A stretch of DNA of 62,792 nucleotides, taken from assembly GCA_018056545.1 (NCBI GenBank), contig JAGPFL010000002.1:1-62792 (forward strand), given 5' to 3'. Shown here one piece after another: positions 27,946 through 45,151 of the stretch. Within the stretch, counting starts at the first letter, position 1, and each line of letters opens with the position of its first letter. Position numbers and translations under genes: made by a program. The notes beneath the pieces are model-generated. The model was given only the letters and a program-made list of their open reading frames with translations. It was not told where the DNA came from and made no database searches. The DNA comes from Syntrophobacterales bacterium (GTDB lineage Bacteria; Desulfobacterota; Syntrophia; Syntrophales; UBA8958).

Positions 27946-29382
27946 TCAAGAAGCGGCCGGGACGTCCCCCGACAGGGCCCGGTGGATGGCCTGGGCGGCC
28001 TTGCGGCCCGCCCCCATGGCCAGGATGACCGTGGCGGAACCGGTGACGATGTCCCCCCCGGCATAGACGCCGGATCGGGTCGTTTCCCCCGACTCGCCCT
28101 TGACGACGATATAGCCCCGACGATTTGTCTCCAGCCCCGGGGTCGTGGCGGGGACAATGGGGTTGGCCATGGTCCCCACGGCAACCACGACGGTGTCCAC
28201 CGCGATGACGAATTCCGATCCGGGAACGGGTACGGGACTGCGGCGACCCGAGGCGTCCGGTTCCCCCAACTCCATGCGGAGGCACTTGACGCCTTGCACC
28301 CAGCCGTTCTCGCCCAGATACTCCACGGGATTGGTCAGCAAATGGAACTGCACCCCCTCTTCCTTGGCGTGATGGACCTCCTCTTTCCGGGCGGGCATCT
28401 CCACCTCGCTGCGCCGGTAGATGATATAGGCGTTGTCCGCCCCGAGGCGCAGGGCGGTGCGGACCGAGTCCATGGCCACATTGCCCCCGCCGATCACGGC
28501 CACGTTCTTGCCCCGGACGATGGGGGTGTCGTATTCGGGAAACCGGTAGGCCTTCATGAGGTTCGAGCGGGTCAGGTATTCATTGGCCGAGTAGATGCCG
28601 CTCAGGTTTTCGCCGGGAATGTTCATGAACACCGGCGCCCCGGCTCCGACCGCGATATAGACGGCGTCGAAACCCGCCGCAAAAAGCTCGTCCACGGTGT
28701 GCAGACGACCGATGACGGCGTTGACGACGATCTTGACGCCCAGTTTGCGCAGATAGTCCACCTCGGCCTCCACGATCGCCTTGGGGAGACGGAATTCGGG
28801 AATTCCGTAAACCAGGACGCCTCCGGCCTTGTGGAGGGCCTCGAAAACCGTGATATCGTAACCGAGTTTGACGAGATCCCCGGCGATGGTCAATCCCGAC
28901 GGGCCGGCGCCCACCACGGCAATCTTTTTCCCCTTCGGCGGCGCCACCTCCGGAACGGTCACGGCGCCCCGTTCCCGTTCGTAATCGGCGGCGAATCTCT
29001 CCAGACGGCCGATGGCCACGGGTTCCCCCTTCTTGCCCAGGATGCAGGTCTTCTCGCACTGGTCCTCCTGGGGGCAGACCCGACCGCAGACGGCGGGGAG
29101 GCTGTTGGTCTCCTTCAGGGTCCGGGCGGCACCCAGGAAATCGCCCGCGGCGATCTGCTTTATGAATTCGGGGATCTTCACATCCACCGGGCATCCCGCC
29201 ACACAGCCCGGCTTCTTGCACTGGATACACCGCGCCGCCTCCCGCATGGCCGTTTCCGGCGCATAACCGAGCGGCACCTCGTCGAAATTCCTGATCCGCT
29301 CCCCGGGATCCTGCTCCGGCATGACCTGACGGGGAATTTTCTCCTTTTTGGGTTTCTCGATCGTTTCTTCCATCTTCCTCAC
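27946..29382 (-). CDS. nfnB: NfnB / SudA-type NADPH-dependent glutamate synthase small-subunit-like oxidoreductase
   Basis: 478 aa. It has N-terminal 2x[4Fe-4S] Cys motifs and two dinucleotide folds (VVGAGPSGLT, VIGGGNVAMD). It sits next to an NfnA/SudB-like gene. Confidence 0.8.
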   Translation of the reverse strand: MRKMEETIEKPKKEKIPRQVMPEQDPGERIRNFDEVPLGYAPETAMREAARCIQCKKPGCVAGCPVDVKIPEFIKQIAAGDFLGAARTLKETNSLPAVCGRVCPQEDQCEKTCILGKKGEPVAIGRLERFAADYERERGAVTVPEVAPPKGKKIAVVGAGPSGLTIAGDLVKLGYDITVFEALHKAGGVLVYGIPEFRLPKAIVEAEVDYLRKLGVKIVVNAVIGRLHTVDELFAAGFDAVYIAVGAGAPVFMNIPGENLSGIYSANEYLTRSNLMKAYRFPEYDTPIVRGKNVAVIGGGNVAMDSVRTALRLGADNAYIIYRRSEVEMPARKEEVHHAKEEGVQFHLLTNPVEYLGENGWVQGVKCLRMELGEPDASGRRSPVPVPGSEFVIAVDTVVVAVGTMANPIVPATTPGLETNRRGYIVVKGESGETTRSGVYAGGDIVTGSATVILAMGAGRKAAQAIHRALSGDVPAAS

Positions 29383-29549: not shown

Positions 29550-30386
29550 CTAATTTCCCTGCCATCCGCACCGGTGCCGTTCGTAGGACTCCCCCTCCTG
29601 GGCACAGTACATCCGCAGGCGGCTGGTCAACAAGTCAAAATCCACCTCATGGCCGTCGAACTCCGGCCCGTCCACACAGGTGAATTTTGTCTTCCCCCCC
29701 ACGGCGACCCGGCAGGCGCCGCACATCCCCGTGGCATCCACCATGATGGCGTTCAGGCTGACGATGGTCTTGATCCCATACGGGCGGGTGAGATTGGCGA
29801 TCACCTTCATCATGGGCACGGGTCCGATGGCGAAGACCCGGTCGATCTTCTCCCCGGCATCGATAATACCCTGAAGGACGTTGCTGACAAACCCGTGGAC
29901 GCCATAGCTGCCGTCATCGGTGGCCACGATCAATTCGTGACTTGCCGCCCGCATTTCTGCTTCGAGAATAATCAGGGACCTGGTTCGGGCGCCGATAATG
30001 GAGGTTACCCGGTTGCCCGCCTCCTTGAGGGCTTTGGTGATGGGATAGATGACCCCCACACCCACACCGCCGCCGATACAGACCACATGGCCGTAGTTTT
30101 CGATCTCCGTGGGATTGCCCAGGGGTCCCTGAACATCCTGTATCTCATCCCCCACGGCAAGTTCGGACATGAGGGCCGTGGTCTTGCCCACGATCTGGTA
30201 GATGATCGTCACGGTTCCCTTTTCCCCGTCGGAATCCACGATGGTCAAGGGTATCCGCTCCCCCCGCTCGTTCACCTTGAGAACGAGAAACTGGCCCGCC
30301 CGGCGTTTCCGGGCGATCTCCGGCGCCTCCAGATCCATGCGGACCACACTGTCCGACAACTGCTCTTTATAAACGATCCTGCTCAA
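29550..30386 (-). CDS. nfnA: NfnA / SudB-type ferredoxin-NADP reductase-like subunit (FAD, [2Fe-2S])
   Basis: 278 aa with a PyrK-like fold. The C-terminus is GMCGACRV...FTCVDGPEFDGHEVDF. Confidence 0.8.
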   Translation of the reverse strand: MSRIVYKEQLSDSVVRMDLEAPEIARKRRAGQFLVLKVNERGERIPLTIVDSDGEKGTVTIIYQIVGKTTALMSELAVGDEIQDVQGPLGNPTEIENYGHVVCIGGGVGVGVIYPITKALKEAGNRVTSIIGARTRSLIILEAEMRAASHELIVATDDGSYGVHGFVSNVLQGIIDAGEKIDRVFAIGPVPMMKVIANLTRPYGIKTIVSLNAIMVDATGMCGACRVAVGGKTKFTCVDGPEFDGHEVDFDLLTSRLRMYCAQEGESYERHRCGWQGN

Positions 30387-30479: not shown

Positions 30480-31319
30480 TCAAAAATCCCTTGTCAATTT
30501 ATCAAGTTCCGCGAAAGTGAAGACGGGGCCGTCCTTGCAGACGTATTTGCTTCCCACGTTGCACCGCCCGCACTTGCCGATACCACACTTCATCCGCATC
30601 TCCAGGGAGGTGATGATGTTTTCCTTGGAGAAACCGAGTTCAAAGAACACCGGGAGGGTGAAGCGGATCATGATGGGCGGACCGCAGATGACCGTCACGG
30701 CGTTTTCCGGGCTGGGGCCGACCTCCTTGCAGACCGTGGGCACGAAACCCTCCCGGCCCTTCCAGTTGGCGTCACCCTTGTCCACCGTCACGTTCAGATC
30801 GATATCGTCCCGTTTACTCCAGGCCTCCAGCTCGTCCTTGTAGATGAGGAGCCCGGGGTTGCGGGCGCCGTAAACCACCGTAATCTTTCCGAAACGCTTT
30901 CGGTTGTCGCCGAAGGTCATGTAATTGATCAGGGAGCGCAGGGTCGTAAAGGCAAAACCGCCGCCGACGATGACGACATTCTTTCCCTCGAGATATTCTA
31001 TGGGCCAGGAATTTCCCAGGGGGCCCCGGAGACCCATCCGCGTCCCCACCTCCATCTCGTGTAGGGCCGAGGTGACGACGCCGGCCTTCTGGACCGTGAA
31101 TTCCACATAGCCCGGCTGGGTCGGCGAAGAAGCGATGCCGATGGGTGATTCTCCCTTGCCGAAAAGGGACAATTCGGCGAACTGGCCGGGGATGTACTTG
31201 AATTTCTCCTCGTCTTCCTTGTTCACGAAGGCCAGACGGAAGGTCTTGATATCCTTCGTATCCACCTCGGTGACGATCTTTATGACCTCGACAGGATAGG
31301 GTATGTAAGGGTTTTGCAT
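30480..31319 (-). CDS. FAD/NAD(P)-binding iron-sulfur oxidoreductase (FlxA / AsrB / HydG-like)
   Basis: 279 aa with a ferredoxin-reductase-type fold. The C-terminal cluster motif is CGIGKCGRCNVG...VCKDGPVF. Confidence 0.75.
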   Translation of the reverse strand: MQNPYIPYPVEVIKIVTEVDTKDIKTFRLAFVNKEDEEKFKYIPGQFAELSLFGKGESPIGIASSPTQPGYVEFTVQKAGVVTSALHEMEVGTRMGLRGPLGNSWPIEYLEGKNVVIVGGGFAFTTLRSLINYMTFGDNRKRFGKITVVYGARNPGLLIYKDELEAWSKRDDIDLNVTVDKGDANWKGREGFVPTVCKEVGPSPENAVTVICGPPIMIRFTLPVFFELGFSKENIITSLEMRMKCGIGKCGRCNVGSKYVCKDGPVFTFAELDKLTRDF

Positions 31320-31334
31320 GACTTTCTCCCAGCT

Positions 31335-32357
31335 CTATAGTTTCGATATATCGGTGACGATCTTCCGGATGTCGATATTTACGGGGCAGTACATGACACA
31401 GCGGCCGCAGCCCACGCAGGCAATGGCGTTGAAATTCTCCGGGTAGTAACTGAATTTGTGCATCGCCCGCTGGCGCCACCGCTCCTTCTGGGTGGGGCGG
31501 GGATTGTGACCCGACGTCTCCTTGGTGAACATGGGAAACATGCAGGAATCCCAGTTCCGCAGACGCCGGCCGTCGCTCCGCATCATCTCGTCGGAGATGT
31601 CGAAGCAATGACAGGTGGGACACAGGAAGGTGCAGGTCCCGCAGGCGAGACAGCGCTGATGGACGGTGTTCCAGAAGGGGCTGTTGAAGTTGGCGTCCAT
31701 GATCGGTTTGACTTCCCGGCCGGGGATGTGGGATTTGATCTCCGCCGCCGCCTGAGCGGCGATGGCTTCCTTCTTCGCCTCGGCGGCGGCATCGGCCTTG
31801 TCCCCGCCGAAATGACCCAGGAGTTTCTCCCCCTTGGGGGTGATGAATTCCGCCAGATAATGGTCGCCCAGATCGGTGAGCAGGACATCCGCCCCGTCGG
31901 CGGCCACGGGATGACCGTCCACGGAGGTGCAGAAGCACGTGGCGTAGGGGGGGTGAACGCAGGCCAGGGCGACGATCGTGGTCTTTTCCCGCTTGTCGAT
32001 GTAATAGGGATCCCGGTACTTCTCCTGATCGAAGAGCATATCCAGCAGGACATAGCTTCGGGCGTCACAGGGCCGCACCCCGAAAAGGACGGCTTTCTCC
32101 GCTTCTTTCTGGCCGGCGGTGAATTCCACACCTTTAGGCGTCCGGGTATAGCGCAGCATGACCTCGCTACGGGGGAAGAAGAAGTTCTTGGGGGCGTTTT
32201 TGCTGTTGGCATAATTCAGGAACGCCTCCTCTCCTTTCTCCAGCGCCTTGAAGAGGACATTGTCTTCCACCTTCACCGGGGCAAAAACTGTTGCCTCTTG
32301 AGCGATCTTCCCGATGATCCCTGTCAGAGCGTCTTTTTTGATCAACCGTTTTTCCAT
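31335..32357 (-). CDS. 4Fe-4S dicluster protein (FlxB / AsrA / HydB-like)
   Basis: Starts at MEKRLIKK (ATG 32357, AAGGA RBS). Cys motifs are CLACGTCTFLCPTCHC and CVGCGRCVMYCP. Confidence 0.75.
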   Translation of the reverse strand: MEKRLIKKDALTGIIGKIAQEATVFAPVKVEDNVLFKALEKGEEAFLNYANSKNAPKNFFFPRSEVMLRYTRTPKGVEFTAGQKEAEKAVLFGVRPCDARSYVLLDMLFDQEKYRDPYYIDKREKTTIVALACVHPPYATCFCTSVDGHPVAADGADVLLTDLGDHYLAEFITPKGEKLLGHFGGDKADAAAEAKKEAIAAQAAAEIKSHIPGREVKPIMDANFNSPFWNTVHQRCLACGTCTFLCPTCHCFDISDEMMRSDGRRLRNWDSCMFPMFTKETSGHNPRPTQKERWRQRAMHKFSYYPENFNAIACVGCGRCVMYCPVNIDIRKIVTDISKL

Positions 32358-32395
32358 ATCGTCCTTCAGTATGAGAAATTGTGGATATATTATTC

Positions 32396-33250
32396 TTAAA
32401 GGAGCCCGAGGCTGCTGACCAGCGGTACGGGGTCCACATTGTGCAGCTTGAACCACCCGGCGGTCCCCGGCAGACCCAGGGACAGCGAAACGAGTTCCGT
32501 GAAGTAGAAGACCGGCAACCGCAGATTCTCGCTGGCCCGGGCATCGAGATTCGCCATGCAGACCGGACAGGCAGTGACGACGCAGTTGGCCCCGGCCTCC
32601 CGGGCCATGGTCATGAGCTTGTCCACCAGTTTCCCGACGATATCCGTCCGGCTGATGGTGAGGCTGCCGCCGCAGCAGTCCGTTTTGTAAGACCAGTTCT
32701 TCACGTCCGCCCCCAGGGTGGCGAGGATCTCGTCCAACATGTAGGGATTTTCGTAATTCTCGAAGTTGCAGACCTCGGGGGGCCGGACCAGGAGGCAGCC
32801 GTAATAGGACACGGGACGTAACCCGGTGAGTTTCTTGATCACCTTGTCCTTCAGGGCGTCCAGACCGATGTCGTGGTAGAGGATATCGATGGGGTTCTTG
32901 ACGCTCAGTCCCGGGACGTACTTCTGTCCCACAATACCCTCCACCTCCGTCTTGAGGCCCTGATCATGATCGAGATGGTGCTGTGCCGACTTGAAACGGT
33001 TGAAGCAGGCGGCGCAGGGCACCATCATCTCCTTGAGGTCCCCCTTGCCGGCAATCATGAGATTCCGGGCGGGAAGGGCCACGGAGAGCTTGAAGTTCGT
33101 GGCATGTCCCGAGGTGGCGCCGCAGCAGGACCAATCGTCGATTTCTTTCAGCTCGATCCCCAGGGCGCGACTCATGGCCTTGACGGACTGATCGTATTCT
33201 TTCGCCGTCCCGTGTAGGGAACATCCCGGATAATATGAAACTTTCAACAC
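32396..33250 (-). CDS. hdrB: heterodisulfide reductase subunit B-like (two CCG domains)
   Basis: 284 aa with CCG motifs WSCCGA...PCAACF and TDCCGG...ACPVCM. Confidence 0.85.
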   Translation of the reverse strand: MLKVSYYPGCSLHGTAKEYDQSVKAMSRALGIELKEIDDWSCCGATSGHATNFKLSVALPARNLMIAGKGDLKEMMVPCAACFNRFKSAQHHLDHDQGLKTEVEGIVGQKYVPGLSVKNPIDILYHDIGLDALKDKVIKKLTGLRPVSYYGCLLVRPPEVCNFENYENPYMLDEILATLGADVKNWSYKTDCCGGSLTISRTDIVGKLVDKLMTMAREAGANCVVTACPVCMANLDARASENLRLPVFYFTELVSLSLGLPGTAGWFKLHNVDPVPLVSSLGLL

Positions 33251-33276: not shown

Positions 33277-33885
33277 TCACGCGTTTTTCGTTTTGTCGAA
33301 TATCTTCCGGACCGCATCGAGATCCCGGGTCTTGGGGGAGACCAGAGACAATTTGCCCTTCATGAACATGGAAATGCCCAGGCCCATATCGGAGAAGAGG
33401 TCCCCGGATTTGAGCTTGTAGTCCACCATCATGAACGGCTCGTTGATCCGGCCCCGGGATTTGATGCTGGCCAGGAACGCCTCGTGGAAGGAGAGGACGT
33501 TCTTTTCCCTGGCCCCGATGCCGGCGGCGATGGCCATTTCCCTAAGGGCATCCATCATGCGGGCGATATCCACCTCGTTGGGGCAGCGGGTGATGCAGGT
33601 TTCACAGGATGCGCAGAGCCAGATGGTGGAACTTCCCAGGACCTCGTTTTTCATCCCCATCTGGATCATCCTGATGACCTTGTTGGGGTTGTGTTCCATG
33701 GCGAAGGCCAGGGGGCACCCGGCGGTGCACTTCCGGCAGTGATAGCAACGCTGCAGGGGCACGCCGTTGATCTTTTCGTTTACTTCTTCCAGAAAGGTCT
33801 TCATGTTGACTCCATTCGCCGTTCGGTCATCCTCGGTTAAGGGCAGACAGCCGTAGGATTTGACCAGGACCTTGTTGCCGGTCAT
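33277..33885 (-). CDS. hdrC: heterodisulfide reductase subunit C-like
   Basis: 202 aa with CYHCRKCTAGCP and CASCETCITRCP. The ATG is 3 nt after the upstream stop. Confidence 0.85.
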   Translation of the reverse strand: MTGNKVLVKSYGCLPLTEDDRTANGVNMKTFLEEVNEKINGVPLQRCYHCRKCTAGCPLAFAMEHNPNKVIRMIQMGMKNEVLGSSTIWLCASCETCITRCPNEVDIARMMDALREMAIAAGIGAREKNVLSFHEAFLASIKSRGRINEPFMMVDYKLKSGDLFSDMGLGISMFMKGKLSLVSPKTRDLDAVRKIFDKTKNA

Positions 33886-33888
33886 AAT

Positions 33889-34899
33889 TTAGGGGTTATA
33901 GATAAAATCTTCCTTGTCGTGCTCCTTGAAGGTGGAAAGGGGCGGCGGATCGTCGAGGGACGAGCCCGCCCGGTTGCCGAAGAAGTCGAAGGCGTCCTTG
34001 TCGAGCTTCTTGAGGAATTTCCTCAGATCCACCCCCATGGGACAGACGGACACACAGGAACCGCAGTCCACGCAACGCCCCACCATGTGGTACAGCCGCA
34101 TGAACTGGAACACCTGGGTATCCGTGGCATCCTCGCCGAGACCCACCCACTGGGGCTGGGTCTGCTCGACGAAACAGATCTTACAGTAACAGGAGGGACA
34201 GGCCTGGCGGCAGGCGTAACAGCGGATGCACTTGGACATCTCCTTGGTGAAATATGCCCAGCGCTCCTCCGGCGGCAGTTTCTCGAAGGCCTCCACCGCG
34301 GCGTATTCCTCCGCCGCCCCCGCCATGGCCGAGGCCGGCTCGCCGACCATGACATCGTTGAGGACGGGATTGTTGAACTTGCAGGTCCGGCAATTGTCCG
34401 CCAGGACGTCCGCCAGGAGGACTTCCTTCTTTCCCCCCGCCGTCTGGACGACCAGTTTGTCTCCCGTCAGGGATCCCTCCCGGATGTCCGCACCGTCCAG
34501 AACCGCCGCCAGGGCCTTGCGATCCACATAACCGGTGCAGGGCACGCCGATGATCACCACCTCTTCCCGCCCGTACTGCCGCTCCTGAAGATGGAGCACC
34601 AGGGAACGGGTGGTGCAGCCTCGGGCCACGACACCCACCACCTTTTTCTTCCGGTCCTCCGGTTTGACCCGTTTCTGGGCTTCCCGGTGCTGGGAGATCA
34701 GGTCATGGACGTACTTGGCCAGATTCTGGGTACAAAAGGCGTTCCAGACGAGCTTGTCCGCGTCCTCCGGATTCGTGATGAAACAGGGCGTCGCCGTCAG
34801 GGGCAGGGTGCCCGCCTCGTAACCCACCAAGGCATCCACCCTCTTTTCCTCCAGGAGCCGTTTTGCCTCTTCCCTTAGCTTTTTCTCGATGTTTTCCAC
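33889..34899 (-). CDS. iron-sulfur protein (FlxC / FrhB-like N-domain plus 2x[4Fe-4S])
   Basis: CIRCYACRQACPSCYC and CVDCGSCVSVCPMG. The GTG at 34899 has a GAGGA RBS. The ORF-track GTG at 34962 is the alternative start. Confidence 0.7.
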   Translation of the reverse strand: MENIEKKLREEAKRLLEEKRVDALVGYEAGTLPLTATPCFITNPEDADKLVWNAFCTQNLAKYVHDLISQHREAQKRVKPEDRKKKVVGVVARGCTTRSLVLHLQERQYGREEVVIIGVPCTGYVDRKALAAVLDGADIREGSLTGDKLVVQTAGGKKEVLLADVLADNCRTCKFNNPVLNDVMVGEPASAMAGAAEEYAAVEAFEKLPPEERWAYFTKEMSKCIRCYACRQACPSCYCKICFVEQTQPQWVGLGEDATDTQVFQFMRLYHMVGRCVDCGSCVSVCPMGVDLRKFLKKLDKDAFDFFGNRAGSSLDDPPPLSTFKEHDKEDFIYNP

Positions 34900-34983
34900 T
34901 TTATCTGAATCCTCGAATTTGTATTTTCTATGGCATGGCCGACGCCGGGCCGGCCGCCGCACCCGGCATCCCCAAAACGGTCT

Positions 34984-35421
34984 TTACAGGGTCTTCACCA
35001 GCTTCGTCGCCGGACCGAGGGCCTGGACCTTGGCGGTCACGCCCTTGATGACATTGGCGAAACGTTCTCCCTCCGAGGCGGAAATCCAGGTAAAGATCGC
35101 CCGGTCACCTTCCACTCCGATGTAGTCCAGGAAACTTTTCAACGTCGCAAACTTGCGGCGCGCCACCATATTTCCTGAAATGTAGTGGCATTCACCGGGG
35201 TGTCAACCGGAAACCAGCACGCCGTCGGCTCCCGTCTGCAGCGCCTTCACGACGTAAAAGGGGTTGATCCTTCCCGTGCAGGGAACGCGCACGATGCGCA
35301 CGTTCGGCGGATACTGAATCCTGCTGATGCCGGCCAGATCGGCGCCGGCGTAAGTACACCAGTTGCAGACGATGGCGACGATCTTGGGCACCCATTCCTT
35401 GTTTGCTACACTTTCACCCAT
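34984..35421 (-). CDS. mvhD: MvhD/FlxD-type methyl-viologen-reducing hydrogenase delta subunit, selenocysteine-containing (TGA at 35203-35205 read as Sec)
   Basis: Two track ORFs (35203..35421 and 34984..35169) share one frame. Read-through gives [19 protein letters not shown]...[28 protein letters not shown]..., a full-length MvhD. A SECIS-like hairpin lies 13 nt after the TGA. Confidence 0.75.
35162..35189 (-). other. SECIS-like stem-loop
   Basis: The minus strand reads GCCACUACAUUU-CAGG-AAAUAUGGUGGC. That is 12 stacked positions with one C.A mismatch and one G.U. It starts 13 nt downstream of the UGA. Confidence 0.55.
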
Positions 35422-35527
35422 ATATTCTCCTTCCCGTGGCTATGCGGCTTTATCGGCCGTTGACCTTAGTTAGCAACCCACGCCACCGCGGCGGCACTTT
35501 ATCAAAGAGTAAATTCGGAAAATTTAC

Positions 35528-38500
35528 TCAGAAGATATTGTATATCTGCTCCAGCTCTTCTTCGTTGGTGAAACCGTTGAGATCCACGGCGTTCATCCGG
35601 CACGAGGCCGTGCACACCCCGCAGCCCTTGCACAGGACGGTGTTCACCTCCGCACAGGCCTCCACGACGTTCACCGAAATGGCGCCGAAGGGACAGTTCT
35701 GTTCACAGAGGCCGCAGGCGGCGCAACGCTCCTTGTTCACATAGGCCGTCTTCCCCTCCGCCTCGATGAAATCTTTGGTAAGGATGGTGCAGGCCCGGGA
35801 TACCGCGGCGTTGGCCTGGACAATGGCGTCCTCGCTGAGCTTCGGGGCATGGGCCATGCCGCACATGAAGACGCCGTCGGTGGCGAAATCCACAGGACGG
35901 AGCTTCACATGGGCCTCCAGGAAGAAGCCGTCCTGGTTCGTGGGCACCTTGAGCATCTTGCCGATTTCCTCGTTTTCCGGATTGGGCACGGTGCCTACGC
36001 TCAAGGCGAGCAACTCCGTCTTGAACTCCACCGGGGCGTTCATGATGGGATCGAAGACCCGGAGGGAAAGTTGGTCGCCCTGCTGGATCACCTCCGGTTT
36101 CCGGTCTTCGTCATAGCGGATGAACCGGACGTTCAGCTCCCGGGCCTTTTTGTAGTAGTCCTCCTTCAGGCCGAAGGTGCGGATGTCGCGGTAGAGGATG
36201 GTGACCTCCCGGGTCGGATCCAGCTCCTTGAGCTTCAGGGCGTTCTTCATGGCCTCGGAACAGCAGTAACGGCTGCAGTAAGGCCGCTCCGGAATCCGGG
36301 AACCCACACACTGGATCATGGTCACGCTGCGGGCCTTGAGGGCCTTGTCTTCCTTCTCGGCGATGAGCTTTTCCAGCTCCCGCTGGGTGACGACCTGGGG
36401 GGACTGACCGTAGAGATACTCCTTGGTTTCCAGCTCATAACCCCCGGTGGCCACGATGACCACCCCGTGCTCGAACTGTTCTTCCCCGTCCCTCGTCGTG
36501 ATGGTGGTCTTGTAGTTGCCGATGAAACCTTCGATCTTCTTGATGATCGCCCCGGTGTAGGCATGGATGAGCTTGCTGGCCTGAACCCTGTCCAGGAGGG
36601 ACTTCAGGTGCCGGCGGGTGTCCAGCCCCTCCAGGGTGTAGTAGAGCTTCCGGTAATTGCCGCCCAGGACCGGTTCCTTCTCTACGATATAGGACTCGTA
36701 GCCCTGATCGGCCAGGGAGAGGGCCGCGGTGATGCCGGCGAGACCGCCGCCGATGATGAGAGTGGCGTGATTAACCGTCAACTGCCCCGGTTTCAGGGGC
36801 TTGAGGAACTGTGCCTTGGCGACGGCCATCCGCACCAGATCCTTGGCCTTTTCCGTGGCCTCCTGGGGCTCGTGCATGTGCACCCAGGAGTTCTGATCGC
36901 GGATGTTGGCCATCTCGAAGAGATAGCGGTTGAGCCCCGCCTTCTCACAGTTCTCCTGGAAGAGCCCTTCGTGGGTCCGGGGGGAACAGGAGGCCACGAC
37001 CACCCGGGTCAGGTTCTGTTCCTTGATCACCTCGCCCATCTTCACCGCCGTATCCTGGGAGCAGGTAAAGAGATTGTCCGTGGCGAAGACGACGTTGGGC
37101 AGGGTCTTGCAGTATTCCACCACCTCGGGGACATTGACGACGCCGCCGATGTTGATGCCGCAATGGCATACGAAGACGCCCGTCCGGGGACCGAGGCCCC
37201 GGAGATCGGATTCCAGAGGCAGTTCTTCCTCCGTGATCATCGTCCCCCGCCGGGATGCCAGGATCCCCGCCGCGCAGGCCGCGGCGCCGCTGGCTTCCAT
37301 GACCGTCTCGGGGATGTCCTTGGGACCGCCGAAGGCGCCGCAGACGAAGACGCCGCTCCGGGACGTCTCCACGGGATTCTCCAAGGCGGTCTTGCAGAAG
37401 CCGTGCTCCTCGAGCTCGATCCCCAGGGCCTTCGCCAGCGCCGCCGCCTCCGGGGGCGGGCAGAGACCCACGGAGAGGACCACCATGTCGAATTCCTCCT
37501 CGATGAGGCTGCCGTCCTCCTGGACGTATTTCAGCAGCAGGTTCTTGGACTGCTGAAGTTCCTTGATCGTCGAGGGCATGGAGCGGATATAGCGGATCCC
37601 GTATTCGTCCTTCGCCCGGTTGACGAAGCGGTCGAAATCCTTGCCGTGGGCCCGGATATCCATGAAGAAGATCGTGGGTTCGAGCTCCTTGGCGTGTTCC
37701 TTGCCGATGATGGCCTCCTTGGTGGCATACATGCAGCAGACGGAGGAGCACCAACTGTTGCCGCAGGAGGTGTCGCGGGAACCGACACACTGGATGAAGG
37801 CGATTTTCTTCGGCTCCCGGCCGTCGGAGATGCGCTGGACATGGCCGAAATAGGGCCCCGAGGCGGAAAGGATCCGCTCGAACTGGATGCTGGTGACCAC
37901 GTTCTGGTAAATCCCGAAGCCGTATTCGCCCCGGAGCCGGGCGTCGAAAACCTCGAAACCCGGTGCGGCGATGACGGCGCCGACTTCGATGGTCTCCTCT
38001 TCGAAGGTGTCGTCATGGTTGATCGCCCCGGCGATACAGGCCTCGACGCACTGATAACATTCCGAACAGATCCCGCAGGCAAGACAGCGCTTGGCCTCCG
38101 CCACGGCCTCTTCCTCGGTGAAGCCGATGCCCACCTCCCGGAAGTTCGTTCTCCGGTCTTCCGGTTTCATGTGGGGGTATTTCCTTCGCGGGACCTTCGC
38201 GACCTTGGAGACGTCGGCCTTGTCGGCCAAATTCTTGGTCCAGTCCTTCGCCCGGCCCGCCGCCACGTCCTCGCCCCGGAGATACCGGTCGATGGAGACC
38301 GCCGCCTCCTTACCGGCATAGACGGCCTTCACCACCGTCGCGGGACCGGTGACCACGTCGCCGCCGGCAAAGACACCCGGGGTGGTCGTGGCGAAGGTCA
38401 CCGGATCGACGTCGAAATTCTTCCACTTGTTGATGGCGATGCCGCTCTCTTTGGGGACGAAATCGAGATCCGCCTCTTGGCCGATGGCGGGGATCAGGGC

Positions 38501-39964
38501 GTCACAGGGGACGATGAACTCCGAACCCTTGATCTCCACGGGACGGCGTCGGCCGCTGGCATCGGGCTCTCCCAGTTCCATACGGGTACATTCCACCCCC
38601 GTGACCTTACCGTTTTCCCCGACCACCCGTTTGGGGGCCACAAGGAATTCCATCTTGATACCCTCTTCCAGGGCCTCTTCGATCTCTTCGGGGGAGGCGG
38701 GCATCTCCGCCCGGGACCGGCGGTAGAGGATGAAGACGTCCTTGGAGCCGGTGCGGATGGCCGTCCGGACGGCGTCCATGGCGACGTTCCCGCCGCCGAC
38801 CACGGCGACCTTGTCTCCCAGGAAGACCTTTTCGCCCAGGTTGACCCGCTTCAAATAATCCACGCCGTGGATGACCCCCTGCATATCCTCGCCGGGGATG
38901 TTGAGTTTGCTGCTATTGACGGTACCGCAGCCGATGAACACCGCGTCGAAGTCGCTCTGGAGCTTCGCGAAGGGGATGTCCTTGCCCACGGCGGTGTTGA
39001 GATGGATCTTTACCCCCAGATCCTCGATGACCTTGATCTCCGCCTTCAGGACATCTTTGGGAAGGCGGTATTCGGGGATGCCCACGGCGAGCCAGCCGCC
39101 CGCCACGGGGAGGGATTCGAAGACCTCTACGTCGTAGCCCTCGGCGGCCAGATAATAGGCGCAGGTGAGGCCCGCGGGACCGGCGCCCACCACGGCCACC
39201 TTCTTGCCCTTGCTCTCCTTCTTCTCGGGAAGGTAGCGGGTTTCGTCTTTCAGATCCAGATCGGCGACGAAACGCTTCAAGTGCATGATGTCGATGGGCT
39301 CTTCCACCTTGCCCCGCATACACGCCGTCTCGCAGGGGTGGTTGCACACCCGGCCGCAGACGATGGGGAAGGGATTGTCCTTTTTGATGAGCTTCAAGGC
39401 CTCTTTGTATTTCCCGGCGGCGATCAGGGCCACGTAGCCCTGGACGCTGATGTGGGTGGGACAGGCCGCCTTGCAGGGGGAGGTGCCGACCTTGTCGATG
39501 GCATAACCGCTGGGAATCGCCTGGGGAAACTTGCGATAAGTCGCCTGGCGCTCGGAAAGATTCTCGTTGAAATCGGAAGGGACGTTGATGGGGCAGACCT
39601 TGGCGCAGTCGCCGCAGCCCGTGCACTTGTTCAGGTCGATGAACCGGGGGGCCCTGGTCATCTTTACCTTGAATTTTCCCGCCTCCCCTTCCACGGCGTT
39701 GACCGTGCGCCGGGTGAGGATCTCCACATTGGGATGCCGGCCTACCTCCACCAGTTTCGGGGAAAGGATGCAGGCGGAACAATCGTTGGTGGGAAAGGTC
39801 TTGTCGAGCTGGGCCATGACGCCGCCGATACTGATGTCCTTTTCCACCAGATAGACCTTCAGGCCGGAGTTGGCCAGATCCAGGGAAGCCTGAATTCCGG
39901 CGATGCCGGAACCGACCACCATAACTGCACCGATTTTTTCATTGTCATTGATCACGTGAGACAC
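35528..39964 (-). CDS. HdrL-type giant HdrA-like flavoprotein (HdrA module split by a GltD/NfnB-like NAD(P)H module, then a second HdrA module and C-terminal ferredoxin domain)
   Basis: 1478 aa. Three dinucleotide-binding starts are present (VVGSGIAGIQ, VVGAGPAGLT, IIGGGLAGIT). Two HdrA signature regions are present (IQCVGSRDTSCGNSWCSSVCC and IQCVGSRIPERPYCSRYCC). There are multiple 4Fe-4S motifs. Confidence 0.85.
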   Translation of the reverse strand: MSHVINDNEKIGAVMVVGSGIAGIQASLDLANSGLKVYLVEKDISIGGVMAQLDKTFPTNDCSACILSPKLVEVGRHPNVEILTRRTVNAVEGEAGKFKVKMTRAPRFIDLNKCTGCGDCAKVCPINVPSDFNENLSERQATYRKFPQAIPSGYAIDKVGTSPCKAACPTHISVQGYVALIAAGKYKEALKLIKKDNPFPIVCGRVCNHPCETACMRGKVEEPIDIMHLKRFVADLDLKDETRYLPEKKESKGKKVAVVGAGPAGLTCAYYLAAEGYDVEVFESLPVAGGWLAVGIPEYRLPKDVLKAEIKVIEDLGVKIHLNTAVGKDIPFAKLQSDFDAVFIGCGTVNSSKLNIPGEDMQGVIHGVDYLKRVNLGEKVFLGDKVAVVGGGNVAMDAVRTAIRTGSKDVFILYRRSRAEMPASPEEIEEALEEGIKMEFLVAPKRVVGENGKVTGVECTRMELGEPDASGRRRPVEIKGSEFIVPCDALIPAIGQEADLDFVPKESGIAINKWKNFDVDPVTFATTTPGVFAGGDVVTGPATVVKAVYAGKEAAVSIDRYLRGEDVAAGRAKDWTKNLADKADVSKVAKVPRRKYPHMKPEDRRTNFREVGIGFTEEEAVAEAKRCLACGICSECYQCVEACIAGAINHDDTFEEETIEVGAVIAAPGFEVFDARLRGEYGFGIYQNVVTSIQFERILSASGPYFGHVQRISDGREPKKIAFIQCVGSRDTSCGNSWCSSVCCMYATKEAIIGKEHAKELEPTIFFMDIRAHGKDFDRFVNRAKDEYGIRYIRSMPSTIKELQQSKNLLLKYVQEDGSLIEEEFDMVVLSVGLCPPPEAAALAKALGIELEEHGFCKTALENPVETSRSGVFVCGAFGGPKDIPETVMEASGAAACAAGILASRRGTMITEEELPLESDLRGLGPRTGVFVCHCGINIGGVVNVPEVVEYCKTLPNVVFATDNLFTCSQDTAVKMGEVIKEQNLTRVVVASCSPRTHEGLFQENCEKAGLNRYLFEMANIRDQNSWVHMHEPQEATEKAKDLVRMAVAKAQFLKPLKPGQLTVNHATLIIGGGLAGITAALSLADQGYESYIVEKEPVLGGNYRKLYYTLEGLDTRRHLKSLLDRVQASKLIHAYTGAIIKKIEGFIGNYKTTITTRDGEEQFEHGVVIVATGGYELETKEYLYGQSPQVVTQRELEKLIAEKEDKALKARSVTMIQCVGSRIPERPYCSRYCCSEAMKNALKLKELDPTREVTILYRDIRTFGLKEDYYKKARELNVRFIRYDEDRKPEVIQQGDQLSLRVFDPIMNAPVEFKTELLALSVGTVPNPENEEIGKMLKVPTNQDGFFLEAHVKLRPVDFATDGVFMCGMAHAPKLSEDAIVQANAAVSRACTILTKDFIEAEGKTAYVNKERCAACGLCEQNCPFGAISVNVVEACAEVNTVLCKGCGVCTASCRMNAVDLNGFTNEEELEQIYNIF

Positions 39965-40147: not shown

Positions 40148-40762
40148 TCAGTTCCCCGACCGCTCCTCCTGCTCGCGGCCGCCGGCCAGCCCGGCAATAA
40201 TCTCCCAGAGCGGCTCCCGCCCCTGTCGGGTACGGGCGGAAAACAGCAGAGGCAGTTGCCGGCCCGCCAGGCCGGCCTGCATACCCACCAGGCGGCGGCG
40301 CTCCGCCGCCTGGTGCTTAGAAAGTTTGTCCGCCTTCGTCAGGACAAGCTGCCACGTGATACCCCTCTCCGTAAGCCACTGAAGAAAATCCAGGTCTTCA
40401 TCCCGGAGATCCCGACGGATGTCCGCAATCAGCAGTACGAGGACCAGATTCTTTCTCCCCGCCAGGTAGGATTCCACCATGGGACCCCAACTTTGTCTCA
40501 TCCGCTCCGGGACCCGGGCGAAACCGTATCCCGGCAGATCGACGAAGCAGAACTGCTCGTTGACGACAAAGAAATTCATCGCCTGGGTCCTCCCCGGGGT
40601 ACGGCTGGTCTTGGCCAGATTACCGCGGTTGACCAAGGTGTTGATCAGGCTCGATTTCCCCACATTGGAACGGCCGGCAAAGGCGATTTCCGGCCATTGC
40701 GGCGGCGGATAATGAGTGGCGAGGAGGGCGGTTTTCAGATACCGCGCGGAATTGATCTTCAT
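40148..40762 (-). CDS. engB: ribosome biogenesis GTP-binding protein YsxC/EngB
   Basis: 204 aa with G1 GRSNVGKSS, G3 DLPGYG and G4 TKADK. Confidence 0.9.
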   Translation of the reverse strand: MKINSARYLKTALLATHYPPPQWPEIAFAGRSNVGKSSLINTLVNRGNLAKTSRTPGRTQAMNFFVVNEQFCFVDLPGYGFARVPERMRQSWGPMVESYLAGRKNLVLVLLIADIRRDLRDEDLDFLQWLTERGITWQLVLTKADKLSKHQAAERRRLVGMQAGLAGRQLPLLFSARTRQGREPLWEIIAGLAGGREQEERSGN

Positions 40763-40772
40763 GAAGAAAAAT

Positions 40773-42146
40773 TCAATCCCGCTCGATGGTAATGCCGTAC
40801 TTCTCCAACTTCCGCTCGAAGGTGGGACGGGAAATGCCGAGGATGTCGCATATCTCCCCTTTGGTCTTATGGCTGTTTTCCTTGATGATCCTGCGGATAT
40901 ACTGTTCCTCCACCGCCTCCAGAGTCAGGGGACGGCCGGCATCCGCCGTTTCTTCCTGGCCCTTGTTCACCGCCGTCAAGGCCTCTTCGGAAAGATCGGG
41001 GAAATCGCTCCGGGTGAGCACCTGGCTTTTGGCGACCACCACCGCCCGGGTAAGGAGGTTTTCCAACTCCCGCACATTGCCGGGCCAGCGGTAGTTCATG
41101 AAGACCTCCATCATTTCATCGGATACCCCGATGACCTTTTTATGTAGCTCCCGGTTGATCTTGGTCAACAGATAGTCCACCAGCACCGGCAGATCTTCCC
41201 GCCGCTCCCGGAGAGGGGGGATGCGGATGGAAACGATGTTCAGGCGATAATACAGATCATCCCGGAATTTACCCTCCTTGACCATGCCTTTGAGGTCCTT
41301 GTTGGTGGCGGCGATGATCCGGGCGTTGACCTTGATGGAATCCTTGCCGCCCACCCGTTCGAAGTCCATCTCCTGGAGGACCCGGAGCAATTTCGCCTGG
41401 AGATTCAAAGACATTTCACTGATCTCGTCCAGGAACACCGTGCCGTAGCGGGCCAGCTCGAACTTTCCCAGTTTGCGGGTGATGGCGCCGGTGAAGGATC
41501 CCTTTTCATGACCGAAGAGCTCCGATTCCAGGAGGGTTTCCACAATCGCCGAACAGTTGACGGCGATATAGGGTTCCTCGGGCGAGGTATTGTTGTGGAT
41601 GACCTTGGCGATGAGTTCCTTCCCCGTACCGCTCTCCCCCTGGATGAGAACGGTGGTCCGGCTTTGGGAGACGACGCCGATGGTCTTGAAGATCTCCTTC
41701 ATTTCCTTGGTGTTGCCGATGATATCGCCGACCTTGAAACTCCGGGAAGGCTCGTTGAGGAGACCGCTGATCTTTTTCTCCATCTCTAGGGTTTTCAAGG
41801 CTTTCCGGATGGCCATGTCCAGCTCTTCCACATTGATCGGCTTGTGGATGTAATCGAAGGCGCCCCCCTTCATGGCCTTGATGGTGGAATCCATGTCATG
41901 ATAAGCGGTGATCATGATCACCTTCACGTTTTCGTCCTCGTCCCGGAGATCCTCCAGGACGGTGAAGCCGTCGATGTCGGGAAGGCGGATATCGAGGATG
42001 ACCACATCCGGGGCATGCTTCACAAAGGCATTGAGACCATCCGTTCCCGTAGCGGCGGTATACACCGTATATCCTTCCTCGGTCAGATAGAGATCGAGGC
42101 TCTCCGCAATGGAACTGTCGTCGTCAATCACCAGAATTTTTGCCAT
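40773..42146 (-). CDS. sigma-54-dependent response regulator (NtrC/Fis family)
   Basis: Starts at MAKILVIDDD (ATG 42146). It has a receiver domain and an AAA+ domain with GESGTGKE and GAFTGA. The C-terminal HTH is EICDILGISRPTFERKL. The ORF-track start is too far upstream. Confidence 0.9.
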   Translation of the reverse strand: MAKILVIDDDSSIAESLDLYLTEEGYTVYTAATGTDGLNAFVKHAPDVVILDIRLPDIDGFTVLEDLRDEDENVKVIMITAYHDMDSTIKAMKGGAFDYIHKPINVEELDMAIRKALKTLEMEKKISGLLNEPSRSFKVGDIIGNTKEMKEIFKTIGVVSQSRTTVLIQGESGTGKELIAKVIHNNTSPEEPYIAVNCSAIVETLLESELFGHEKGSFTGAITRKLGKFELARYGTVFLDEISEMSLNLQAKLLRVLQEMDFERVGGKDSIKVNARIIAATNKDLKGMVKEGKFRDDLYYRLNIVSIRIPPLRERREDLPVLVDYLLTKINRELHKKVIGVSDEMMEVFMNYRWPGNVRELENLLTRAVVVAKSQVLTRSDFPDLSEEALTAVNKGQEETADAGRPLTLEAVEEQYIRRIIKENSHKTKGEICDILGISRPTFERKLEKYGITIERD

Positions 42147-42169
42147 GGAGCGCTCCTGATCGTTTCGTC

Positions 42170-44203
42170 CTATTCCTGGAGGGGGAGGGTGATGAGTATT
42201 TTCGTTCCCTCTCCCTTTTTGCTTTCGATCTCGATGTTGCCCCGGTGCAGGTCGATGATCTTCTTGACCTGGGTCATACCCAATCCCGTTCCGTAGCGCT
42301 TTTGCGTAAAAAAGGGATTGAACATGTGGGATATGGTTTCCGCGTCCATCCCGCACCCGTTGTCGACGATCTCCACGACCACGGCATGAGGATCGGCGCC
42401 CAGATCCCGGGCCGAGACATGCAGCCGGCCTCCTTCGCCCATGGCATCGATGGCGTTCCGGAAGATGTTCTGAAAGGCCTGCTCCAGCATAACGCCGTCA
42501 ATAACCGGATGGGGCAGTTCCTCTTCCACCTCGACGACGACGGCGATTTTCTTGTCGGTCACCGCCTTTTCCATCATTTCCAGGGCGTTTTCTATGGTGC
42601 GGCGAAGATCTGTTGGAACCCGTTTCGGTTCTCCCGGCTTGGCATAGATCAGCACGTCGTTCACCAGTTCTTCCAGATGTTCCACCTCCCGCTGGGCGAT
42701 CTTGAAACGTTTCAGATCGTTGCCCGTGGGTTGCAGCCGTTTTTCCAGGATCTGCAGGCTCATTTTGATGGAGGAAAGGGGATTGCGCACCTCATGGGCG
42801 ATACCGGCGGACAGTTGTCCGATGGCCGCCAGCTTCTGGCTTTCATAGTACTTCTTCTCCAGTTCCTTGAACTCGGTGATCTCCCGACGGACCATGACAT
42901 AGCGGTCCTTCTCTCCCTTGAGGGGACAGGGGGTGATGAGATTGAACTGGCGGCTGCCGTCGGCGGCAATCACCTCCATCTCGAAGGGCTTGAAATTCCC
43001 CTTCTTTATCTCTTCCCATTTTTCCAGCAGGAATTCTTTACGGTCGGGCACGTACTCGGTAAAATGCTTGCCCTTGATCTGCGAGGGTTTCATCCCGTCA
43101 CTGCTTCGGTCCCGACTGACGTAGGTGATGATCCCGTCGCTGTTGAGCTCGAAGAGGGTGTCCGGAGAACTTTCCAGGATCGTCTGAATGTAATTGTAGA
43201 GCCCTTCCAATTCCTGGCGGAGCCGGATGTTTTCCTTCAGCTCGTTCTCCAGATTCTCGGCGTATTCCTTCAGATGGTGGGACATTTCCTGTTCCCGGGT
43301 GATGTCCTGCAGGGTCTCCACGGCGGCGATAACCTCTCCCTGGTCGTCGTGGATGGGGGCCGCCAGAAAATACAGATAACGCCCCTTCCCGCCGATATTG
43401 GGATAGAAATCCCAGGCCTCATAGGCGCCCTCGATGATCGGCGATTTCTGCACGTTCTTCTTTCCGTAATACTTCTCCAGACTCTCTATGTCTTTATCGA
43501 CGATGAGATCGGCGATTACCGGACGTTTTTCCGCATAAAAGGGGACGTACTGACGGTCCGTGCCGATGAAATACTTGCCTTCGTAACCGCTCAACTCGGT
43601 GAAGGCCCGGTTCCAGAACATGATCTTGTGATCCCGACCGATGACGAACATGGGAATGGGAGATCCCTCGATGATACCTTCGATGGTTTTCCGCAGCTTG
43701 ATGTTCTTCTCGAGCTCATCACGCATGTTGGCGGCGTATTCCTTCAGACTGAGCTCCATCTCCCTTTCCCGGGTGATGTCCTGAAGGGTTTCGATGGCGG
43801 CGATAATCTCGCCGTTCTCGTCGTAGATGGGTGCCGCCAGAAAATAGAGGTGCCGGTTCTGTCCACCCAGGTCGATGTAAAAATCCCGGGCCTCATAAGC
43901 GCCTGCCACCTTTCTGGATTTTCTGATACGCTTGGTGCCGTAGAACTTTTCCAGACCGCCGATGTCCTGGTCGATGATCAGATCGGCAATCAACGGCCTT
44001 CTCGTGCCATAGAAGGGCATGTAGTGCTTGTCCGTACCGATCATTTCGCCGGCGGCGAAACCGGTGAGTTCCTCGCAGGCCCGGTTCCAGAAGATAACTT
44101 TGTGCTCCTTGTCGATGACAAAGGTGGGGATGGGGGATCCTTCTATGATGCCGACGATGACCTTCCGCTCGCGCAGGAGTTGCTCCTCGGCGGCTTTATT
44201 CAT
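42170..44203 (-). CDS. cytoplasmic multi-PAS sensor histidine kinase
   Basis: Starts at MNKAAEEQ (ATG 44203). No TM segment. Two tandem 158-aa PAS-containing repeats plus a third PAS. H-box is LSAGIAHEVRNPLSSI. HATPase motifs are DNGCGM and GTGLGM. Confidence 0.88.
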   Translation of the reverse strand: MNKAAEEQLLRERKVIVGIIEGSPIPTFVIDKEHKVIFWNRACEELTGFAAGEMIGTDKHYMPFYGTRRPLIADLIIDQDIGGLEKFYGTKRIRKSRKVAGAYEARDFYIDLGGQNRHLYFLAAPIYDENGEIIAAIETLQDITREREMELSLKEYAANMRDELEKNIKLRKTIEGIIEGSPIPMFVIGRDHKIMFWNRAFTELSGYEGKYFIGTDRQYVPFYAEKRPVIADLIVDKDIESLEKYYGKKNVQKSPIIEGAYEAWDFYPNIGGKGRYLYFLAAPIHDDQGEVIAAVETLQDITREQEMSHHLKEYAENLENELKENIRLRQELEGLYNYIQTILESSPDTLFELNSDGIITYVSRDRSSDGMKPSQIKGKHFTEYVPDRKEFLLEKWEEIKKGNFKPFEMEVIAADGSRQFNLITPCPLKGEKDRYVMVRREITEFKELEKKYYESQKLAAIGQLSAGIAHEVRNPLSSIKMSLQILEKRLQPTGNDLKRFKIAQREVEHLEELVNDVLIYAKPGEPKRVPTDLRRTIENALEMMEKAVTDKKIAVVVEVEEELPHPVIDGVMLEQAFQNIFRNAIDAMGEGGRLHVSARDLGADPHAVVVEIVDNGCGMDAETISHMFNPFFTQKRYGTGLGMTQVKKIIDLHRGNIEIESKKGEGTKILITLPLQE

Positions 44204-44378
44204 GTTCCGCTTCCTTCTTTTTCTTGTCCTTGTGCTCCTTGACCGCCATGAGGACATAAACCCCCACCGCGGCGCTGAGGGAGATGATAAGATTGACCAG
44301 ACCGCTTTCGATGCCGATGACCCGCTGACATATCAGCCAGACCACCAAATATGTCACGGCCGTTAAGATTTCTTGCAT
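44196..44378 (-). CDS. small two-TM membrane protein, translationally coupled to the PAS kinase
   Basis: 60 aa reading MQEILTAVTYLVVWLICQRVIG...LIISLSAAVGVYVLMAV plus a Lys-rich tail. AGAGG RBS. Its stop overlaps the kinase ATG (ATGAATAA). Confidence 0.5.
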   Translation of the reverse strand: MQEILTAVTYLVVWLICQRVIGIESGLVNLIISLSAAVGVYVLMAVKEHKDKKKKEAEHE

Positions 44379-44659: not shown

Positions 44660-44675
44660 TGGCATATCTGTTGCA
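44660..44675 (+). promoter_or_regulatory. sigma-54 (-24/-12) promoter
   Basis: TGGCATATCTGTTGCA is a near-perfect match to TGGCAC-N5-TTGCA. It lies ~100 nt upstream of the ATG at 44774. Confidence 0.65.
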
Positions 44676-44773
44676 GTTCCCGGCGCAGTTCAAAACATTT
44701 TTACTTCCCGTGATACATATTCTGTGTTATGGGAGGAAAAATTATAAGCCAAGATACGAAAGGAGAAGAAAAG

Positions 44774-45151
44774 ATGTTAGGGAAATTTGGAAAGAAGTTG
44801 TTAACTCTCATGACGGCAACAGCGGCGGTACTTATGTCCTCCCCGGTCGTTTTTGCTGCGGAAGCTCTCCCCGCTGCCGGCGATTCGTACGTTAAGGTGA
44901 TTTATGCGGTAGGCGCCATGGTCGCCGCCGGATTCGCCATCGGCCTTGGCGCCATCGGCGCCGGCGCCGGTATCGGCAATGCCGCCAATGGGGCCTGTCA
45001 GGCCGTCGGAAGAAACCCCGGGGTTCAGGGTAAGATCATGACCGTGATGCTGGTCGGTATGGCCATGGCGGAATCCGTTTGTATTTATGCCCTGGTTGTG
45101 GCGCTCGTTCTTCTCTATGCCAACCCCTACGTAAAGTACTTTTTGGGTTAA
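44774..45151 (+). CDS. ATP synthase subunit c paralog (copy 2) with N-terminal signal-like extension
   Basis: 125 aa from the ATG at 44774 (AAAGGAGAAG RBS). It reads MLGKFGKKLLTLMTATAAVLMSSPVVFA-AEA, then the c-subunit hairpin GAIGAGAGIGN...GRNPGVQG...MAMAESVCIYALVVALVLLYANP. Confidence 0.8.
   Translation: MLGKFGKKLLTLMTATAAVLMSSPVVFAAEALPAAGDSYVKVIYAVGAMVAAGFAIGLGAIGAGAGIGNAANGACQAVGRNPGVQGKIMTVMLVGMAMAESVCIYALVVALVLLYANPYVKYFLG

Follow-up and report, generated by a model that had tools for sequence, protein, structure and literature searches.

Does an in-frame UGA in the middle of an mvhD gene end the protein, or is it read as an amino acid? The question is raised by an mvhD/flxD-type gene on the reverse strand of a 62,792-nt stretch of DNA (the window, positions 1 to 62,792 of contig JAGPFL010000002.1) from a Syntrophobacterales bacterium, where the gene appears as two separate open reading frames (ORFs). 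We consider it likely, with a probability of roughly 85%, that the two ORFs are fragments of one mvhD gene whose UGA at codon 73 is read as selenocysteine (Sec). The strong support comes from comparison: many genomes have TGA at this codon, and a downstream hairpin accompanies it.

The MvhD protein would feed electrons to the flavin of an HdrA-type bifurcating enzyme, here a 1478-residue HdrL-type fusion encoded just upstream. By the standard bacterial route, SelB, drawn to the site by an mRNA stem-loop that begins 6 nt beyond the UGA and has its apical loop 23-25 nt from it, would deliver Sec-tRNA(Sec). We infer this dependence on SelB and on a selenocysteine insertion sequence (SECIS), as well as the presence of selABCD in the genome. 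The features of the gene, all on the reverse strand, are as follows.

34984..35421, reverse strand: mvhD/flxD-type gene, 145 codons plus TAA, with one internal UGA; family PF02662
35203..35205, reverse strand: proposed Sec codon UGA, codon 73
35427..35432, reverse strand: Shine-Dalgarno sequence AAGGAG, 5 nt before the mvhD ATG (35419-35421), read from the sequence
35157..35196, reverse strand: SECIS-like stem-loop, 40 nt, starting 6 nt after the UGA

The mvhD frame and its internal UGA

Translation of 34984-35421 gave 146 codons in a single frame, including the terminal TAA, with the TGA at 35203-35205 as the sole internal stop, within the motif G-U-H-P-G-E-C-H-Y. The original prediction had held that the two ORF fragments (35203..35421, 72 residues; 34984..35169, 61 residues; both on the reverse strand in the ORF list) lie in the same frame, parted by the TGA and the 11 sense codons before the ATG of the second fragment, and translation confirmed this. 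It had also held that read-through yields one 145-residue MvhD/FlxD protein. With Cys put at the TGA, the PF02662 (FlpD/MvhD) profile indeed matched from end to end (positions 1-123 of 123, 173.8 bits, E = 1.7e-51, against a curated cut-off of 22.3 bits). The MvhD chains 5odc_D, 7bkb_F and 9sw2_D of solved Mvh/Fdh-Hdr complexes aligned to it gap-free (E = 1e-43 to 1e-48), and the NCBIfam VhuD model NF045873 scored 132.7 bits, under its cut-off of 215. By homology to the solved structures, the product would be a cluster-binding [2Fe-2S] adaptor of HdrA-type complexes.

Five conserved Cys positions were recognized in the window protein (C19, C22, C48, U73 and C78), the CxxC motif being CNWC. In the gap-free alignment with 9sw2_D the chain number equals the window number minus 6, and the correspondence with M. 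marburgensis MvhD is C22 to Cys16, U73 to Cys67, H74 to His68 and E77 to Asp71. In M. marburgensis MvhD, Cys16 is the 'additional' conserved Cys that is not a ligand, and His68 and Asp71 lie at the interface with the Cys202/Cys205 pair of HdrA (PMC13580544). Because there are five invariant Cys and Cys16 is the extra one, U73 is most probably one of the four [2Fe-2S] ligands. U73 would then adjoin the His/acidic pair opposite the two HdrA Cys, where electrons pass toward the bifurcating FAD, and a selenolate ligand there would tune the potential of the [2Fe-2S] cluster or the rate of electron transfer. The literature treats the passage of electrons from the MvhD cluster to the bifurcating flavin as an open question (PMC13580544, PMC13518236), and matched variants for this step exist in nature as the Sec/Cys pairs of ~90% identity described below.

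UGA and Cys codons at position 73

The comparison set comprised 86 MvhD copies from 80 genomes/loci, obtained by scanning one genome per species. At the codon aligned with the window TGA, 19 copies had TGA, 44 had TGC and 23 had TGT. The TGA falls in a Cys/Sec column, and the earlier claim that Cys-type homologues carry a conserved Cys here held: a TGC or TGT codon in 67/86 copies, Cys in the best 120 database matches, and Cys67 in solved MvhD. TGA carriers were found in Syntrophales/Smithella, in Cloacimonadota/Delongbacteria and, as a single metagenome-assembled genome (MAG), in Bacillota. Among the five conserved Cys positions, TGA occurred solely in the codon-73 column (pattern CCCCC in 63 copies, CCC*C in 16). 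A neighbour-joining tree with Fitch parsimony gave at least 7 switches between Cys and Sec, a rough number given the short sequences.

Ten of the TGA-bearing MAGs are of the Syntrophales/Smithella type, with proteins 79-91% identical to that of the window. We compared each of them with the window on either side of the TGA. The ratio of non-synonymous to synonymous differences per site (pN/pS) was 0.12-0.26 at pS of 0.25-0.72 in the part 3' of the TGA, comparable to the 0.07-0.18 of the N-terminal part. The mvhD frame 3' of the TGA is thus under purifying selection. The C-terminal part measured 73-74 codons in nine of the ten relatives, and the tenth (L018) ends at a contig edge. Truncation of the gene in close relatives, which would have spoken against the original prediction, was therefore not seen; the TGA is followed in all ten MAGs by a conserved, selected frame, of the same length.

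The same TGA, with the identical 70 nt downstream, was present in all of eight independently assembled metagenome contigs. On these contigs the gene callers gave ORFs of 72 and of 60/61 residues, both matching PF02662, so the split by gene callers that had been foreseen does occur in public data. The exact 72-residue N-terminal fragment is present on 38 public contigs, which indicates that mvhD is systematically mis-annotated, and related 72-residue pieces are labelled 'hydrogenase iron-sulfur subunit, partial' in public records. Because of this mis-annotation, metabolic reconstructions of Smithella/Syntrophales would score the Hdr/Flx-type bifurcating module as incomplete and miss the need for selenium. 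Smithella/Syntrophales syntrophs are key degraders of alkanes and fatty acids in methanogenic systems, and a selenium dependence of syntrophs is implied.

Could the gene simply be broken, whether by a nonsense mutation that made it a pseudogene, by faulty assembly or by a true division into polypeptides of 72 and 61 residues? The two ORFs put out by the callers and an AGGA lying 5 nt before the internal ATG (35167-35169) would suit a split, but most relatives have Leu (CTG or TTA) in place of this ATG, which is therefore not a conserved start, and a split would drop 11 codons that hold an invariant Cys and His. Neither decay nor an assembly error fits the purifying selection on the downstream part or the recurrence of the TGA in 8 independent assemblies and 10 related MAGs. 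A broken gene is extremely unlikely on this evidence: a pseudogene and a split gene were rejected by the recurrent TGA, the downstream selection and the non-conserved internal ATG, and a sequencing error by the 8 assemblies and 10 MAGs. We also rejected a reassigned code, since TGA is the normal stop of 19/39 family-supported window genes and UGA is therefore not reassigned genome-wide. A mechanical scan of the window for other TGA-interrupted genes gave many candidates, as expected at 57.5% G+C; those in the operon genes beside mvhD were all out of the family-supported frame.

The downstream stem-loop and the reading of the codon

Folding of 60 nt, together with the alignment consensus, defined the 40-nt extent of the SECIS-like stem-loop. 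It consists of a lower helix (GGUG/CGCC), a 2-nt bulge, an 8-bp helix, a 1x1 mismatch, four weak A-U pairs and the loop CAGG; the core of the 8-bp helix is GCCACUA/UGGUGGC. The hairpin at 35162-35189 that the original prediction had placed 13 nt after the TGA lies within this element and contains that core. It exists as described, with 7 bp, a 1x1 mismatch, 4 bp and the loop CAGG, and it stands at SECIS distance from the TGA and is kept in all TGA forms.

The hairpin co-occurs with the UGA. In the 12 TGA forms, 92% of the pair cells were paired, compared to 62% in the 34 Cys forms of the clade, and the 7-bp core stem was intact in 12/12 TGA forms compared to 3/34 same-clade Cys forms. Only one fully synonymous site matters, a Val codon: its third base forms a pair with base one of the His CAC. 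This codon was GTG in all 12 TGA forms and in 3/7 of the Val-bearing Cys forms (p = 0.009). Where a Cys form shares the peptide ISGNLVAR unchanged (L005, L006, L009 and L012), folding gave only -3.4 to -7.7 kcal/mol, whereas the 40-nt window element by itself folded at -15.0 kcal/mol (z = -2.64; 4/200 shuffles fold as well), which is modestly unusual. At the same distance from the UGA, the TGA forms of Cloacimonadota and Bacillota carry other hairpins, whose loops are canonical (UGUCA and AGGUU in Cloacimonadota, UGU in Bacillota). These forms, of the pattern N-G-[G/U]-N-N, evolved independently.

A published model of bacterial SECIS (bSECIS) elements specifies an apical loop of 3-9 nt, an upper stem of 4-16 bp, a distance of 16-37 nt from UGA to loop and a minimum free energy of -7.5 kcal/mol or lower, with a G as the first or second nucleotide of the loop and, as a rule, G or U next; the review that gives the model notes that some bSECIS elements do not conform (PMC13188914). 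The window element lies within the size and energy bounds, with a loop of 4 nt (8 in the consensus fold), a stem of 8 + 4 bp, a spacing of 23-25 nt and -15.0 kcal/mol. Several orthologues have the loop G (CGGG), and the window has an invariant GG at loop positions 3-4 (CAGG) or 5-6 (consensus fold).

Several observations weigh against the favoured reading or limit it. The loop of the window element, CAGG or, in the consensus fold, UUCAGGAA, lacks the G that the model places in its first two positions. In a 76-nt context the hairpin was unremarkable (z = -1.21; 26/200 shuffles fold as well). No SECIS family was found by Rfam at gathering thresholds in the whole window, and a search of 35080-35260 with Rfam release 15 at E <= 10 gave one chance microRNA match on the opposite strand. 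The alignment of TGA forms contained no compensatory double changes in the hairpin, the sole variation being U-G to U-A, and the core stem is mostly forced by the peptide C-H-Y...[L/M]-V-A. Because the TGA forms are closely related, the counts linking TGA and hairpin are not independent and ignore kinship. Three Cys forms with TGC or TGT (L002:1472, L004:6217 and L048:138) keep an intact core stem; they could be recent conversions from Sec to Cys, or the peptide sequence itself could account for part of the stem. U73 was taken as a ligand through elimination and not on the basis of coordinates. Finally, scans with ARAGORN, Rfam and Pfam/NCBIfam (~55 ORFs) detected none of selA, selB, selD and tRNA-Sec in the window, so the Sec competence of the genome is assumed from relatives: a Smithella composite genome with selA, selB, selC and selD (PMC5389517), and locus L009 with a Sec-type tRNA described below. 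The only structural RNAs of the window were the following two, which confirm a bacterial origin.

49267-49654, reverse strand: RNase P RNA, bacterial class A, 316 bits
50533-50608, reverse strand: tRNA-Met

Part of this evidence would suit a leaky stop that needs no SECIS, at which a near-cognate tRNA (Trp, Cys or Arg) is accepted at low frequency, giving mostly the 72-residue product and little full-length protein lacking Sec. The hairpin has neither covariation support nor the canonical loop G, and a C follows the UGA in every TGA form, which is a weak, leaky context. This C is, however, dictated by the invariant His codon, and the hairpin is retained specifically with the TGA, which is itself confined to one Cys column. 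Trp or Arg at an essential cluster-site residue would destroy the site, and if most of the product were truncated, the downstream part would escape the purifying selection that it shows. We regard a leaky stop as very unlikely.

The identity of the inserted residue raises another alternative. A tRNA(Cys) named selC*, with discriminator U73 and anticodon GCA or UCA, is known from delta-proteobacteria including a Smithella composite genome, and a second selB lies downstream of selC* in Syntrophobacterales and Desulfobacterales (Mukai et al., PMC5389517). Among our loci, L009 encodes a Sec-type tRNA at 9849-9943 on the forward strand (ARAGORN tRNA-SeC, anticodon UCA; RF01852 58.4 bits, gathering score 47). 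The base after its acceptor stem, the discriminator, is U and not G, the signature of the selC* tRNA(Cys). A Cys-type mvhD, in a gene context unlike that of the window, lies 3.4 kb upstream of this tRNA. As a side observation, the tRNA gene is surrounded by genes for a TusA-DsrE fusion, a YeeE-like sulphur/selenium transporter, a thioredoxin-like protein and DUF5714.

Such a tRNA could recode the UGA as Cys, always or at scarce selenium, through SelB or a SelB paralogue and the same hairpin; the protein would then work as a Cys-MvhD or come in both Sec and Cys versions. Besides the known selC* with its second selB and the tRNA of L009, the frequent interchange of TGA and TGY at codon 73 speaks for this, as it implies that Cys is functionally acceptable there. 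However, the L009 tRNA belongs to a relative with a Cys-type mvhD and another gene context, not to the window genome, and no cysS* or selB* was seen among the fetched loci. Sec insertion stays the default because every selC*-bearing genome, including the Smithella composite genome, had the full Sec apparatus, with complete selA/B/C/D (PMC5389517). A costly signal for Cys alone is also hard to explain, as TGC or TGT would serve. We believe that recoding as Cys is decidedly unlikely. The codon might instead be switchable, read as Sec when selenium is available and otherwise as Cys by a UCA/discriminator-U73 tRNA(Cys) (selC*) with the same hairpin. This, too, we consider decidedly unlikely; if true, one gene would give a selenolate- or a thiolate-ligated [2Fe-2S] adaptor for the bifurcating HdrL complex.

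Two further hairpin observations concern other elements. Directly after the SECIS-like element, a second small hairpin (35147-35156, reverse strand), GCA-AGUU-UGC over the codons R-K-F-A, persists in 11-12 of the 12 TGA forms and varies more among Cys forms; the second nucleotide of its loop is G, but at 49 nt from the UGA the loop is farther away than usual. The Cloacimonadota/Delongbacteria TGA loci (L064, L066, L067 and L070) have two mvhD paralogues each, both with TGA at the same codon (e.g. L064:1501 and L064:6196) and with a 6-bp hairpin AUUACC/GGUAAU, loop UGUCA or AGGUU, 22 nt after the UGA.

Gene neighbourhood and known Sec-containing relatives

The expected partner of MvhD is the HdrL-type fusion, whose gene ends 106 nt upstream of mvhD; HdrC- and HdrB-like genes lie downstream. 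HdrL combines a GltD-like NAD(P)H/FAD/iron-sulphur (FeS) module with two HdrA-like thioredoxin-reductase modules and ferredoxin domains. Family scans gave the following neighbours.

35528..39964, reverse strand: HdrL-type fusion, 1478 residues; Pyr_redox_2, Fer4_20, FAD_oxidored, Fer4; HdrA2 971.7 bits, PRK12771 583.8 bits
27946..34962, reverse strand: same-strand gene block downstream of mvhD, consisting of the seven genes below
33889-34962, reverse strand: FrhB/FdhB-like FeS protein
33277-33885, reverse strand: HdrC-like protein
32396-33250, reverse strand: HdrB-like protein, CCG domain
31335-32456, reverse strand: AsrA/HydB-like protein
30480-31319, reverse strand: AsrB/HydG-like FAD/NAD protein
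29550-30386, reverse strand: FeS protein of DHOD-B type
27946-29382, reverse strand: GltD/NfnB-like protein

This gene order is shared with L001, a Sec-type relative, and with L081-L088. A GltD-like/HdrA fusion followed by mvhD is the HdrL-MvhD module of the Desulfobacterium autotrophicum type, an arrangement first described in that organism (PMC2702500).

The original prediction had pointed to Sec precedent in the family, and rightly so: archaeal VhuD (PMC4989117) and D. autotrophicum MvhD1, 2, 3 and 5 (PMC2702500) contain Sec. VhuD, which is subunit D of the F420-non-reducing hydrogenase in Methanococcales and Methanopyrus and occurs in Lokiarchaeota as well, belongs to the same family PF02662 and is likewise encoded downstream of hdrA; it is a selenoprotein, as the window MvhD would be. 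It has two Sec, whereas the window MvhD has one and keeps Cys in CxxC. The archaeal SECIS lies in the 3' untranslated region and goes with PSTK/SepSecS machinery; the window element lies inside the coding region right after the UGA. VhuD partners HdrABC and a [NiFeSe] hydrogenase, and the window MvhD an HdrL-type NAD(P)H-linked fusion. The two VhuD Sec are ~50 codons apart (PMC4989117), and the MvhD/VhuD family is listed with the motif CxxU and up to 2 Sec (PMC13188914). Counting from CxxU (C22), only position 73 (C22 + 51) fits, and the window Sec site is therefore probably the second of the two VhuD sites.

In D. autotrophicum HRM2 the Sec-containing MvhDs are encoded beside hdrA/hdrL (PMC2702500). 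This organism resembles the window in being bacterial and in having mvhD directly downstream of HdrL, an HdrA/glutamate-synthase-like fusion with an NADH-binding site. PMC2702500 does not give the Sec position within these MvhDs. HdrL1 and HdrL3 of D. autotrophicum are themselves selenoproteins, whereas the window HdrL ORF is uninterrupted; D. autotrophicum belongs to Desulfobacterales and the window is Syntrophales-like, and the downstream genes differ.

BamF of the class II benzoyl-CoA reductase of Geobacter metallireducens is likewise a bacterial, MvhD-homologous [2Fe-2S] adaptor beside an HdrA-like bifurcating subunit, with one Sec. Its Sec19 has been described as the 'cysteine near the cluster' (bioRxiv 10.64898/2026.04.10.717634) and occupies the CxxU site, to which Cys16 of M. 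marburgensis and C22 of the window correspond. By alignment, the proposed Sec of the window falls on the Cys67 equivalent, and thus neither on this 'extra cysteine' CxxU site of BamF nor on the CxxU given as the family motif. BamF also exceeds the 145-residue window MvhD by more than 100 residues and has an additional Rossmann domain and winged helix. The window protein, with Cys in CNWC, 145 residues and no AOR/BamB-type gene among the scanned window genes, is not of the BamF type.

The nearest counterparts with Cys are the MvhD/FlxD proteins of Smithella and other Syntrophales, which have the same length and up to 90% amino acid identity to the window protein, with TGC or TGT in place of TGA; the stem is lost in 31/34 of them and kept in L002, L004 and L048. 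The window mvhD is most probably a genuine, unannotated Sec-type gene that joins an established selenoprotein family; public databases mis-annotate it. Selenoproteins of this type have been described before and would not surprise a specialist. Slightly unusual are the lone Sec at a probable cluster-ligand site and not in CxxU, the SECIS-like hairpin that departs from the consensus loop, and the repeated interchange of Sec and Cys among relatives up to ~90% identical to the window protein.

Further observations concern the surroundings of hdrL and other loci. Just upstream of the hdrL operon (40148-44257, reverse strand) lie genes for a small GTPase (MMR_HSR1), a sigma-54-dependent response regulator and a multi-PAS histidine kinase. 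Because a sigma-54 activator adjoins the operon, we searched for a sigma-54 (-24/-12) promoter in front of hdrL and found none when one mismatch at most was allowed; ~120 nt ahead of the hdrL start there is a TTGACA. A sigma-54-like -24/-12 motif with 1 mismatch, TGGCATATCTGTTGC, was located at 44660-44674 (forward strand), 55 nt upstream of the ATP synthase subunit c gene (44729-45151), and matches to such motifs in the window were no more numerous than expected by chance. In L082 (1-2894), HdrL was called as two ORFs (731 + 570 residues) with a 4-nt overlap, compared to a single gene of ~1475 residues in the window and other contigs; a frameshift, faulty assembly or a true division of the gene could explain this. 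A Bacillota MAG (L068, ~1400-2300) has a second mvhD copy with a Cys codon at 1886, in a 300-codon frame with ~150 residues C-terminal to the MvhD domain, a length that recalls the extended BamF-type adaptor.

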